A stretch of 53,556 nt of DNA from Patescibacteria group bacterium. GTDB taxonomy: Bacteria; Patescibacteriota; Minisyncoccia; UBA6257; GWB1-50-10. Each line of letters opens with the position of its first letter. Position 1 is the stretch's first letter. The stretch covers positions 1 through 53,556 of the forward strand of contig JASEIC010000003.1 of NCBI GenBank assembly GCA_030017555.1. The letters are read 5' to 3'. The translations under genes were made by a program, and so were the position numbers. Positions 1,121-53,556 of this stretch are shown piece by piece. The notes beneath the pieces were generated by a model. It did not search any database and had not been told where the DNA came from. It saw only the letters and a program-made list of their open reading frames with translations.

Positions 1121-1154
1121 TCTTCAAAATCTTCCATATGGAAGATTTTGAAGA
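1121..1154. repeat. Perfect 34-bp palindrome downstream of PaaX-like gene 1
   Basis: TCTTCAAAATCTTCCAT|ATGGAAGATTTTGAAGA equals its own reverse complement. Confidence 0.95.
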
Positions 1155-1180
1155 AACCCTTTTTCTACCACAGAATCAAA

Positions 1181-1711
1181 CTATTTATTTGAAGTTGTAA
1201 ACCGCTTAAAATGACGTTTTATATCCTCGTCGTTTTCTAAAAATTCTACCAACATTATTTTGCAATACTGGTTTATTTCTAAATCCACCAATAATTTCCA
1301 GAATTTTTCCGCTAAATAATCGGGGTAGATCCAAACGCTTTTTTGAAGTTGATAAAAACCTAAATCTTTAAGCAAACTTCTTAATATGTAGCGCTTTTTA
1401 TCAAAATTCACAGGCACGTCAAAAGTCACGAGCCGCCATTTTCCATCCCACGATTTGATATTTTTAAACTCGTCTTTAATAACTAATCGGTCAAAGAACA
1501 TGATTCCTTTTTTCGTAACTAAAAATTTCCCGTCTTGTTTCGTAATAAGACTATTTTTAATAAATCTATTGAGGCTTTGTCGGAGATATTTATTCTTTTG
1601 ACGATTTTTAAGAAACTCGTTGATAAGTGTTTCGGTTACGGTTTTAGCGCCAGCAAAAAATAGACCCCATTCCTTTATGTGTTGCCGCGCATCAATGGAA
1701 GTTTTTGCCAT
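1181..1711 (-). CDS. PaaX-family-like protein (N-terminal winged-helix, C-terminal Cas2/VapD-like fold)
   Basis: WDGKWRLVTFDVP...R..LR..L...GF..LQKSVW motif after a basic wHTH-like segment (LRQSLNRF...LVTKKG). Confidence 0.8.
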   Translation of the reverse strand: MAKTSIDARQHIKEWGLFFAGAKTVTETLINEFLKNRQKNKYLRQSLNRFIKNSLITKQDGKFLVTKKGIMFFDRLVIKDEFKNIKSWDGKWRLVTFDVPVNFDKKRYILRSLLKDLGFYQLQKSVWIYPDYLAEKFWKLLVDLEINQYCKIMLVEFLENDEDIKRHFKRFTTSNK

Positions 1712-1712
1712 A

Positions 1713-1744
1713 CTTCAAATTTTACCATATGGAAGATTTTGAGG
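1713..1744. promoter_or_regulatory. Degenerate copy of the 1121-1154 palindrome overlapping the promoter of PaaX-like gene 1
   Basis: CTTCAAATTTTACCATATGGAAGATTTTGAGG, 28/32 identical to the perfect copy; the minus strand reads TGG-TAAAAT-7nt-ATG. Confidence 0.8.
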
Positions 1745-7326: not shown

Positions 7327-7350
7327 GATAGTTCTCTCTGATTTGTTAGT

Positions 7351-7869
7351 ATGATAAGCATAAAACCAGGGTTCAAAATTAAGGAACCAAAAAATAAAAA
7401 AAATTTAGTTATAGGCGATAATGGTTTTTTACCATCCGTTACATATAAAAAGATTTTTGCCGTCATACCCATTGTTTGTGTTGATGTGGTTGTAAAACAT
7501 AAAAATAAAGCTCTGCTGTGTAAAAGAACAAATAAGCCGGGGCAAGGAAAATTATTTTTGCCGGGCGGAAGAGTTTTTAAAAATGAATATTTAAAAAAAG
7601 CGGTTGTTCGTAAAACTTTTGAGGAGCTCGGCATAAGGGCTAAGCAGTCCGATTTTAAGTTTTTAACAATTTCCGAAGGAATATTTAAAGGTTCGCAAAT
7701 AGGCGGTTCAATGCATAATATTAATACTGTTTATTTGATTGAATTTAAAAAAAAACCGGTTATAAATTTTGATAAAACACAAACTTCAAAAATTGTGTGG
7801 GTTCGTAAGATTAATGATAAATTACACCCGTCCGTGAAAAGATCATTAAAAGCAGCAGGTTTAAAATAA
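7351..7869 (+). CDS. NUDIX hydrolase, GDP-mannose mannosyl hydrolase-like
   Basis: PIVCVD, PGGRVFKNE...RKTFEELG variant Nudix box; located in a GDP-sugar cluster. Confidence 0.7.
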   Translation: MISIKPGFKIKEPKNKKNLVIGDNGFLPSVTYKKIFAVIPIVCVDVVVKHKNKALLCKRTNKPGQGKLFLPGGRVFKNEYLKKAVVRKTFEELGIRAKQSDFKFLTISEGIFKGSQIGGSMHNINTVYLIEFKKKPVINFDKTQTSKIVWVRKINDKLHPSVKRSLKAAGLK

Positions 7870-7870
7870 A

Positions 7871-52441: not shown

Positions 52442-52457
52442 ATCTACGATCGTGGAT
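52442..52457. promoter_or_regulatory. Palindrome upstream of PaaX-like gene 2
   Basis: ATCTACGATCGTGGAT, sharing the ACGATCGTGG core with the downstream repeats. Confidence 0.7.
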
Positions 52458-52488
52458 ATAACGAAAATATACTTTATTATTATAAATA

Positions 52489-53079
52489 ATGTTTAAACAA
52501 AAAAGATTTAGAGAGAAAATAGGAGGGAAAACCATTATTATAGGATTAAGTGGTATTGCGGTTTTGTTGGCTTTTGCTGATGCCGCCGCGAAAACATTTT
52601 TGAGTTTTCCCGATCATAGAACTTCAATTGGTCACGTTTGGAAAAATCTACGGCGTTATCCGTCAAAATCAGTACGTGAATATTTTGAAGAACTTAAAGA
52701 AATAAGCGGCGTTAATTTGAGAAATATTTTATATCGTTTGGAACGGAAGGGATTGGTTAGAAAAACAGGTGACGGTTATGTTGCCACGTCTCTGGGCGGG
52801 GAAGTTGCCGAAAATGTAAAAGATTTGATTGAAAAATCCGCCCTTTGGGATGGCAGATGGCGGCTTATTACTTTTGATGTACCAGAAAAAAGTCGAAGAG
52901 ATAGAGATTGGCTTCGTGATATTTTACGATTGTACGATTATAAATCTCTTCACAAAAGCGTTTTTCTTGGCAAAATCCCTTTACCGGAAAAAATTTATCG
53001 AGAAATTTATGAACGAAAAATGAGCAGTTATATAAGACTTCTAACGGTGGGGGAAATAGATGAGGATGAATTAACATAA
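52489..53079 (+). CDS. PaaX-family-like protein (winged-helix plus Cas2/VapD-like fold)
   Basis: LRNILYRLERKGLV...Y.AT..G, then WDGRWRLITFDVPEK.R..RD.LR..L....LHKSVF. Confidence 0.8.
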   Translation: MFKQKRFREKIGGKTIIIGLSGIAVLLAFADAAAKTFLSFPDHRTSIGHVWKNLRRYPSKSVREYFEELKEISGVNLRNILYRLERKGLVRKTGDGYVATSLGGEVAENVKDLIEKSALWDGRWRLITFDVPEKSRRDRDWLRDILRLYDYKSLHKSVFLGKIPLPEKIYREIYERKMSSYIRLLTVGEIDEDELT

Positions 53080-53113
53080 AAAGATTAATATAGGAAAGTA
53101 TAGAGTGAATTAA

Positions 53114-53252
53114 TGGTCGGATTTCTATTTATCCCACGATCGTGGGCGGAGAGGAAATATAGTTTTTTCATTTAGTTTTGTTTTGATTTTGTTTGATATT
53201 GGATATTGGTTGGATTTCTATTTATCCCACGATCGTGGGTGGAGAGGAAATA
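53114..53252. repeat. Two 46-bp direct repeats with palindromic core CCCACGATCGTGGG, separated by 47 bp
   Basis: 53114-53159 and 53207-53252 differ at 2 positions. Confidence 0.9.
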
Positions 53253-53361: not shown

Positions 53362-53556
53362 TTGGAAAAATTCGTGATATTTTTCAAAGTCAAAACGCAA
53401 GGCAATAACATCGGACGTCAATATATTGAAAAACGGAATTATGATTGGAAAAATTCGTGATATTTTTCAAAGTCAAAACGCACGGCAATGACATCGGACG
53501 TCAATATATTGAAAAACGGAATTATGATTGGAAAAATTCGTGATATTTTTCAAAGT
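53362..53556. repeat. 83-bp tandem repeat (at least 2.3 copies, runs off the window)
   Basis: Units start at 53362, 53445 and 53528; copies 1 and 2 differ at 2 positions. Confidence 0.92.

Follow-up and report, generated by a model that had tools for sequence, protein, structure and literature searches.

The window analysed here is contig 33 (JASEIC010000003.1, 53,556 nt) of a Patescibacteria genome that comprises 674 kb on 39 contigs and is 99% complete. Near each end it carries a gene for a short protein in which a winged helix-turn-helix (wHTH) domain precedes a Cas2-fold domain, as in the repressor PaaX, and each gene lies between copies of a palindrome of its own, one upstream of the start codon (U) and at least one downstream of the stop codon (D). 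The features of the two loci are as follows.

1032–1067: G+C-rich hairpin with 15-nt arms, a 6-nt loop and flanking A and T runs, between convergent genes
1121–1154: D of gene 1, a perfect 34-bp dyad, TCTTCAAAATCTTCCATATGGAAGATTTTGAAGA
1181–1711, minus strand: gene 1, open reading frame (ORF) of 176 aa, winged helix plus Cas2 fold; stop codon 1181–1183, ATG 1709–1711
1713–1745: U of gene 1
1719–1727, minus strand: extended −10-like motif TGGTAAAAT, read by eye from the sequence, inside U
52442–52457: upstream dyad of gene 2, ATCTACGATCGTGGAT, CGATCG centre, 7/8 arm pairs
52489–53079, plus strand: gene 2, ORF of 196 aa, a paralog with wHTH, PaaX_M domain and a hydrophobic N-terminal segment
53133–53146 and 53226–53239 (region 53111–53252): two downstream copies of the gene 2 dyad, CCCACGATCGTGGG

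The D palindrome of gene 1 lies 26 nt past the stop codon, exactly where a sequence-only reading of the window had placed a perfect 34-bp palindrome, and consists of two 17-nt arms that meet without a spacer at the centre CATATG; it is one of only four spacer-free perfect palindromes with 17-nt arms in the genome. The same reading had seen a 28/32 copy directly before the ATG. The copy is indeed present, with a corrected count of 29 identical positions in 33 (88%) and an end 1 nt before the ATG. Allowing up to 3 mismatches, the 34-mer has one match in the window against none in 100 shuffles, and for its 16-nt core a tolerance of 2 mismatches gives U and D only; across the whole genome, a tolerance of 10 mismatches still returns just two copies. 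Neither chance nor a genome-wide repeat therefore explains the pair. The exact 34-mer had no match in metagenome contigs, and a query for public sequencing runs over positions 600–2400 listed none.

Because D is flanked by convergent genes (the neighbour is an ORF at 3–995 on the plus strand), it does not occupy a promoter region. A consensus scan scored it as terminator-like on the plus strand only, with the tail AACCCTTTTT; the hairpin at 1032–1067 is likely a bidirectional intrinsic terminator, so that D is not the sole 3′ structure behind gene 1. U is the putative operator. The −10-like motif inside it is spelled by exactly those bases at which U departs from D, and it ends only 7 nt before the ATG, from which the gene 1 mRNA may be leaderless. 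The consensus promoter scanner missed this motif and picked another promoter-like site at 1864–1837.

At gene 2, whose product is 30% identical to that of gene 1 over 120 aa, a promoter-like site of the form TGGATA-16-TATTAT (52453–52480) has a −10 element ending 8 nt before the ATG, and the upstream dyad overlaps its −35-like hexamer. The downstream copies are embedded in a 49-nt direct repeat (94% identical, 93-nt spacing). An independent recurrence of the architecture had been proposed for 52.4–53.3 kb; dyads do stand on both sides of the gene, but the case is weaker than that of gene 1, with a shared core of 10–14 bp and a U/D score (defined below) of 10, a value not distinguishable from background by the control statistic alone. 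The hydrophobic stretch before the winged helix (52489–52600, residues ~14–33) recurs, for example as IIIGLSGIAVLLAFADAAA or LALVAPNALQVL, in a large part of the family and could be a membrane anchor or a buried helix. A tandem array at 53362–53556, which lies 280 nt past gene 2, comprises at least 2.3 head-to-tail units of 83 nt (98% identical) and is cut off by the end of the contig. The 12-nt palindrome TCAATATATTGA is present in every unit, and with a unit length not divisible by 3 the array is probably non-coding. Elsewhere in the genome (its contigs are given as C numbers), an orphan 36-bp near-palindrome between clpP-like and tyrS-like genes, TTTTCATTCATCCTACGATCGTGGGATGAATGAAAA (C7:2844–2883), has the CGATCG core of the gene 2 sites and different arms.

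A winged-helix protein with a Cas2-type fold

Both window proteins match Pfam PaaX_M (PF20803; cut-off 24 bits), gene 1 at 64.7 bits (E 8.5e-18) and gene 2 at 53.2 bits (E 3.3e-14), and the Pfam scan of the two found nothing else above cut-off and no Y1_Tnp. The PaaX equivalog model TIGR02277 reached 23.6 bits against a cut-off of 264.55 and matched only positions 81–157 of 279. Cas2 models also stayed below their cut-offs (PF09827, CRISPR_Cas2, 20.5 versus 23.8 for gene 2; TIGR01573, 22.9 versus 24.5 for gene 1), and NCBIfam IS200 matched PaaX-like proteins at chance level (E 0.16). The gene 1 product contains WDGKWRLVTFDVP and LQKSVW, as had been noted, ends ~15 residues beyond the Cas2-like domain and is without the C-terminal ligand domain of PaaX.

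An AlphaFold2 model of the gene 1 protein, built from a 30-row alignment (mean predicted local distance difference test score 90.9), was compared with PDB using Foldseek: E. coli PaaX (8a39) ranked first, Rv0674 (3kfw) second and 3l09 sixth, with Cas2 chains (5zyf) behind PaaX and Rv0674. Searched against PDB sequences, a family profile gave as its best match a true Cas2, 6jhz, at E 5.6e-4, a value that is evidence of relatedness only; FDIP and QKSVW of the family align there with FDLP and QKSVY. The Cas2 β1 Asp, part of the metal site, corresponds to D98, which is invariant in 30/30 aligned proteins, and the motif [FYH]D[IVL] occurs in 104/104. Model, Foldseek ranking and profile alignment thus uphold the suggestion of a wHTH followed by a Cas2-like fold with Asp at the β1 position. 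A homodimer prediction for the gene 1 protein scored 0.25 against a mark of 0.42 and is not used as evidence.

The family is large, with 6845 cluster representatives at E ≤0.001 and 5363 at ≤1e-10, and the best 150 representatives are all 124–241 aa long. The earlier remark that the window holds no paa genes extends, for PaaA/PaaC (PF05138), to the whole 99% complete genome. Cas1 (PF01867) is likewise absent from the genome and the flanking repeats bracket a gene, not spacers; a link to CRISPR was dropped.

Bracketed genes across Patescibacteria

The genome holds exactly three PaaX_M genes, and all three are bracketed by palindromes, each by a different one. The third (PaaX_M, 32.9 bits) lies on another contig.

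C2:19391–19900, plus strand: third paralog, 169 aa

Its U, TCCTCAATTTTGTATCATATGTTACAATATTGAGGA, ends 21 nt before the ATG, and its D, the perfect 26-bp AAAATTGTAACATATGTTACAATTTT, lies 82 nt past the stop; between this gene and its ortholog in genus g7, U keeps TGnTACAAT and D stays symmetric.

Recurrence was scored as S, the best ungapped match between the 200 nt upstream and the 250 nt downstream of an ORF. The PaaX-like family is patchy, being present in 24 of 41 relatives with 0 to 10 copies; S was at least 15 in 20 of 31 loci from the 24 genomes, one locus being dropped for a short flank. A further 80 loci, found with a 9-row subfamily alignment, came from named contigs of Patescibacteria (Jorgensen-, Brenner-, Nomurabacteria, Paceibacterota and others), and 51 of the 75 that could be scored reached the same mark. 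After removal of identical proteins and with full flanks required, the pooled set comprises 95 unique loci, 61 of which have S ≥15 compared to 9 of 571 control ORFs, the control being all ORFs of at least 100 aa with full flanks in the window's own genome; those nine include two PaaX-like genes and one RAYT-like gene. Palindromes with an arm score of at least 12 on both sides occur at 26/95 loci versus 1/571 controls, the sole control being the third paralog itself, and at least one of these two signs is present at 77/95 versus 48/571. The proposal that gene and flanking palindromes form a recurrent unit is therefore confirmed: the observation is real and general, extending to a large family, flanking palindromes are clearly commoner at PaaX-like genes than at random genes, and a paralog-specific palindrome stands on both sides at most loci. 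The top score of the control scan belonged to a 796-aa ORF (C11:42935–45325) with a 71-nt sequence repeated upstream and downstream.

Site anatomy was measured at the 45 loci that allowed U and D both to be centred. The sites are 18–46 bp long (median 38), with the centre of U at a median of −41 from the start codon (range −153 to −17), which is a promoter position, and that of D at a median of +36 from the stop. Most are spacer-free with symmetric hexamer centres, e.g. CATATG, CGATCG, CGGCCG, CTATAG or CCATGG, and a minority have CGGTCG-type centres; in some subfamilies (loci L119, L128, L135), the outer arms and centre alone are symmetric, resembling the PaaX operator. U and D are in direct orientation in 38 pairs and inverted in 7, with no rule where the centre is asymmetric. 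Single-linkage protein clustering merged nearly everything, and subfamilies were defined by N-terminal motif. CATATG is the centre in 12 of 14 pairs with M[AGS]KT[SA] (‘MAKTS’) proteins versus 2 of 31 others, so the palindrome centre follows the protein subfamily; the outer arms of ‘MAKTS’ sites read C(C/T)TCA...TGA(G/A)G.

Symmetry is not absolute. Sites in genus g5 are mostly hybrids with four unpaired inner bases per side, including both flanks of the gene in one relative (G062; G numbers denote genomes), and G059, G051 and G056 hold sites that join the left arm of one variant to the right arm of another. Counts of sense-strand G:T at mismatched positions (D 12 versus 11, U 8 versus 14, orphans away from the genes 5 versus 6) give no sense-strand excess, which speaks against a strand-specific RNA hairpin. 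A −10 box generally carried by U and absent from D was also considered and set aside, as it is not significant over the 45 loci.

Dispersed copies of the palindromes

The palindromes of the three paralogs number 2, 3 and 3 copies in their own genome. The single orphan of the third type (C8:12449–12484) lies in a 700-bp stretch without an ORF of at least 60 aa, and beside the own-genome orphans there was no Rfam or tRNA match and no pseudogene (tblastn, E up to 10). The G007 ortholog of the third paralog has seven palindrome copies, two flanking and five orphans. The sequence-only reading had called the module self-contained, which suits gene 1, with its two copies only, but not a family with orphans.

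For the ‘MAKTS’ subfamily type, dispersal was followed with the pattern CTCA-N8-9-CATATG-N8-9-TGAG, in which the outer four bases and the centre are fixed. It matches in 23 of 61 family genomes, with 13 sites in G059, 10 in G056, 9 each in G007 and G068, 8 in G005 and 7 each in G018, G051 and G062; the reversed pattern had no match in the 61 genomes. G018 has six identical copies, two flanking the gene and four elsewhere. Such dispersed orphan copies of gene-bracketing palindromes, 30–38 bp long and up to 13 per 0.5-Mb genome, are new here. In 61 distinct sites, 34 of them perfect throughout, the bases left free by the pattern show complementarity at 474 of 532 mirror positions, compared to a mean of 228 and a maximum of 272 when arms were paired across sites (72 distinct arms).

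Site counts differ within genera (G020 0 versus G068 9; G010 5 versus G064 0). Direct comparison of two g5 species revealed one pair of site loci with common flanks, and a second site conserved with a CATATA centre, which the pattern missed, so that site conservation is underestimated. Overall, when 6 site loci were compared between two congeneric species, 2 proved to occupy orthologous positions, one of them ~40 bp upstream of a promoter-like stretch that is itself conserved. The 8 sites of G005 are accompanied only by a PaaX-like gene of another subfamily; repeat-flanked genes may have been lost in assembly. Several sites are at contig ends, with contig 9 of G001 ending inside one and contig 25 starting 58 nt before one. 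Also on contig 9 of G001 (7345–7870; L254), 496 bp separate two perfect 30-bp palindromes, both CATATG-centred but different from each other, with no PaaX-like remnant between them (tblastn E 0.026 or worse).

Placement was assessed for 74 sites, of which 16 adjoin a PaaX-like ORF, 5 are ambiguous and 6 are at a contig end. The 47 classifiable orphans comprise 25 in co-directional, 14 in convergent and 8 in divergent regions; the background, own-genome intergenic regions of at least 60 bp, comprises 214, 30 and 52, respectively (296).

Candidate functions of the palindromes and their proteins

The mechanism we rate most likely, with confidence evenly balanced, is that these proteins are short PaaX-type dimeric autorepressors without a ligand domain and with a second site after their own stop codon. 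It is so rated because repression is the one function established for the fold, and because it fits the size and placement of the sites. The winged helix would read the sequence and the Cas2-fold domain would pair two subunits, such that the dimer binds a 30–42-bp dyad through its conserved outer arms and conserved 6-bp centre. With U overlapping the promoter, the protein would shut off its own synthesis; D, usually the more perfect copy, may be a high-affinity anchor that loops to U and/or blocks RNA polymerase entering or leaving the gene, and at orphan copies, mostly past 3′ ends, the same protein could act as a bound roadblock, an insulator or a local regulator. Consistent with autorepression are the PaaX_M matches, the excess of bracketed loci over controls by both measures, the paralog specificity of the palindromes and the pairing of CATATG with ‘MAKTS’ proteins, together with the promoter position of U, the −10-like motif in U of gene 1, the −35 overlap at gene 2, the motif kept in U of the third paralog, the PaaX-operator-like symmetry of some subfamilies and the conserved site loci.

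The closest precedent is E. coli PaaX (8a39), which represses the paa operon in response to phenylacetyl-CoA; it is the best structural match, and in it an N-terminal winged helix is likewise followed by a Cas2-like middle domain. According to the review PMC9493321, the PaaX operator is TGATTC-N27-GAATCA, 39 bp, and PaaX represses its own promoter by steric hindrance. The sites here resemble that long dyad of ~39 bp with outer inverted hexamers in their median length, but unlike it are mostly palindromic through their whole length, recur after the stop codon and are further dispersed. The window proteins differ from PaaX in size (176–196 aa versus 305 in the solved chain), in having no C-terminal ligand domain, in a genome without paa genes and in keeping the Cas2-type Asp. 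With Cas2 and VapD they share the ferredoxin-like fold, FD(I/V)P at the end of β1 and QKSVW, whereas fusion to a winged helix, scores below the Cas2 model cut-offs and the lack of Cas1 in the genome set them apart from Cas2. A second operator, within the gene under control or past it, also exists for the repressors acting at lac O2, gal and deo; there, too, two like operators lie some hundreds of bp apart and could be bridged by a protein loop, whereas here the second site is past the repressor's own stop codon, is often more perfect and is a family-wide rule. Of the two mechanisms in the sequence-only reading, the autoregulated switch is accordingly the better fit as regards an operator at the promoter (a PaaX-sized site, PaaX self-repression), and looping between two operators would be an extension of it. 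Patescibacteria have very small genomes with few recognisable regulators, yet this family is large, and gene-specific palindromes that provide a predicted binding site for each member offer an easy entry to regulation in mostly unculturable organisms.

Several observations nevertheless weigh against autorepression as the full account. A plain repressor needs no second site past the stop codon, and D of gene 1 has no promoter there. Promoter-like sites in the window, in the scans for both genes, are not above shuffles in number, and a crude −10 score of the ATG-proximal arm is higher in U than in D at 15 of the 45 loci, equal at 20 and lower at 10. U and D differ on both arms at 51 mirror positions, compared to 16.2 ± 3.3 when one arm's differences were shuffled; 33 of the 51 keep both sites paired, and one-sided differences number 116. 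Half-site reading by one protein does not predict such mirror double changes, which suggests that some symmetrising force acts or that pairing is required. Orphans are over-represented in convergent regions (14/47 versus 30/296, odds ratio 3.8, p 7e-4) and not in divergent ones (8/47 versus 52/296), and co-directional orphans are nearer the upstream gene's 3′ end in 19 of 25 cases (p 0.015); these p-values are rough, as the background was taken from a single genome with a simple ORF caller and the relatives are not independent. This placement is that of repetitive extragenic palindromes (REPs) and terminators, not of operators. G001, from the window's own genus, has four sites and G023 two, with no PaaX_M or subfamily match detected in either. 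The Asp at the Cas2 catalytic position, kept in all 104 proteins, is absent at that column in PaaX-like Rv0674, and a pure dimerisation scaffold would not need it. Finally, identical 32–38-bp sites at unrelated places do not arise by point mutation and call for a copying process; autorepression leaves their origin at many places without explanation, and equally leaves unexplained the site after the stop codon, the identical sites at unrelated 3′ ends and the invariant Asp.

A role akin to that of pairs of REPs and RAYTs (REP-associated tyrosine transposases, relatives of IS200/IS605) would explain the site after the stop codon, the spread of identical sites and the invariant Asp. Here the wHTH–Cas2-fold protein would recognise its palindrome, perhaps as a hairpin or cruciform, and spread palindromes while its gene stays single-copy, a reading we consider possible though somewhat unlikely. 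Its chemistry, in which a Cas2-type metal site at the dimer axis would nick or cut the dyad centre, is put forward just as tentatively. Until now, a bracketed gene with dispersed copies was a layout seen with RAYT transposases alone. Here, REP-like sites have been taken up by a family of repressors, or else palindromic repeats are handled by a protein with a Cas2 fold. As characterised by Bertels and Rainey (PMC3337134), a RAYT gene is short, is flanked by its own repeats, has one repeat type per paralog and is single-copy. The PaaX-like genes, ~500 bp long, share all four of these non-catalytic features, each paralog being single-copy with its own palindrome type in most, and their repeats are likewise dispersed in extragenic DNA. 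The window's own genome also has a true RAYT-like gene with an identical layout.

C7:9940–10629: RAYT-like gene, 229 aa, Pfam Y1_Tnp 36.3 bits, HFH motif

It is flanked by the REP-like palindrome ATTATCGAGGTT(C/G)AACCTCGATAAT (region C7:9902–10672), which has six copies in the genome (C1:28058, C2:5175, C7:9902, C7:10144, C7:10652 and C39:21672). This is the classical REP/RAYT layout, and the control statistic ranks the gene between two PaaX-like genes.

Further points favour a REP/RAYT-like role for the PaaX-like proteins. No Y1 transposase was found in G007, G018, G059 or G056, which have 7–13 PaaX-type sites each; orphans are numerous against a null reversed-pattern control, favour convergent gaps and 3′ ends, differ sharply in number within genera and, as expected of repeats, often meet contig ends. 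Hybrid sites with arms from two variants point the same way, but are equally explained by two acceptable half-sites. The invariant Asp would suit a nuclease, and the abstract of PMC5438308 describes Cas2 proteins of subtype I-C as metal-dependent nucleases of double-stranded DNA. The PaaX-like proteins lack HUH and tyrosine motifs, however, having a wHTH and a Cas2 fold in place of the HUH/Tyr type. We know of no recombinase chemistry in a Cas2 fold. Copy numbers of 2 to 13, not hundreds, are tens of times below those of classical REPs (2, 3 and 3 in the window's own genome), four attempts revealed no insertion polymorphism with defined ends, and 2 of 6 site loci hold orthologous positions within a genus. 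Compared with REPs the palindromes are longer (30–42 bp); most are perfect, and their symmetry runs through the centre, a feature that a hairpin can do without. PaaX-family proteins, moreover, are established repressors (PMC9493321). Of the REP/RAYT-like proposal in the sequence-only reading, the orphan palindromes in relatives and the single-copy paralogs with a type of their own hold good, and the mobile cassette does not.

Autorepression and a REP/RAYT-like role are not exclusive, as a repeat-handling protein may also repress its own gene. More speculatively, and in our view unlikely, the family could represent a second, independent invention of the REP/RAYT lifestyle, in which a Cas2-fold protein places its metal site on the centre of a 30–40-bp palindrome, spreads and maintains the repeats, and has its own gene trapped between two of them. 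If true, no Cas2-fold protein would have been linked before, through sequence specificity, to palindromic repeats outside CRISPR, and the finding would be relevant to the first association of Cas2 with such repeats. A Cas2-fold protein that handles palindromic repeats would also be of interest for the origin of CRISPR repeats. A literature search, with most subscription journals and supplements outside its reach, found no description of this arrangement.

The palindromes could instead act alone as DNA or RNA structures at gene ends (terminators, mRNA 3′ stabilisers, cruciforms), or through another factor, with PaaX-like genes merely insulated by them. Orphans do lie at 3′ ends and between convergent genes, D of gene 1 is terminator-like on the plus strand, variable arm positions are kept complementary far beyond shuffled partners (474/532 versus 228), and perfect sites persist in G001 and G023, where no PaaX_M gene was detected. 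A palindrome type that is paralog-specific and follows the protein subfamily is not expected of an unrelated structural element, however; there is no sense-strand G:T excess, most sites lack a T run, the centre is symmetric where a loop needs no symmetry, and ordinary G+C-rich terminators are present beside the sites. We regard structure alone as improbable.

Last, the gene itself might be an excisable cassette, with the protein recombining U with D so that the gene leaves as a circle and reinserts, orphans being the scars. In favour, the gene is always enclosed by a pair of like sites, orphans look like U or D, the hybrids among them could have arisen by U/D recombination, and the family is patchy. 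Yet among up to 10 PaaX-like paralogs in a 0.5-Mb genome, two near-identical copies of one gene were never seen, and 15 paralogs (9 of 10 in G059, 6 of 6 in G056) have pairwise identities of at most 59%. In at least G000, G007 and G014, representing three genera, the same release-factor gene has a module directly upstream, and between G000 and G007 the U and D of this module keep separate identities; a module of another subfamily occupies the same place in G032, while aldolase and release-factor genes adjoin without a module in G001, G008, G011 and G013. The empty junction in G001, of the same genus, has no solo site (no palindrome with an arm score of at least 11), and its intergenic DNA cannot be aligned. 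G068 and G020 lose synteny at the site; between G062 and G005 one locus is conserved (CATATA centre), one is rearranged around tRNA genes and, at the gene locus, the left flank is not syntenic. The four attempts revealed no insertion with defined ends, so the search for empty sites in related genomes yielded no clean case, and the mix of direct and inverted U/D pairs follows no rule where centres are asymmetric. The mobile cassette of the sequence-only reading is thus highly improbable. A conserved release-factor module in which U and D each retain their own character instead fits a resident regulator, in line with autorepression.

RF1 and RF2 are ~360 aa long. The release-factor homologs of the window's own genome (C2:20110–20847 and C15:720–1400) are both only ~240 aa, starting near a ILEIRAGTGGDEA motif, and the open frame of the best match is 241–275 aa in 24 of 26 related genomes (loci L033–L058), suggesting that the N-terminal domain may be missing or encoded apart.

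Other repeats accompany the palindromes described above. A ~118-bp MITE-like (miniature inverted-repeat transposable element) repeat in G062 (contig 5; L241 2388–2505) has many copies in G005, in at least 12 places, and, since it matches in either orientation, is an inverted repeat in its own right. In the window's own genome, G+C-rich perfect palindromes of the form (A)CCCGCC...CCATGG...GGCGGG(T) occur at C4:300, C39:12696, C1:23343, C11:11948, C22:5610, C34:726 and C36:22827; these could represent either a further repeat family or terminators whose CCATGG tip is conserved. An ATTAAT-centred palindrome with the core GCGCTTCAATTAATTGAAGCGC has three copies (C4:11110–11141, C35:6498–6527 and C22:58578–58601), and 55 nt from one of these lies a perfect 34-bp palindrome with an ACATGT centre (C35:6582–6615).

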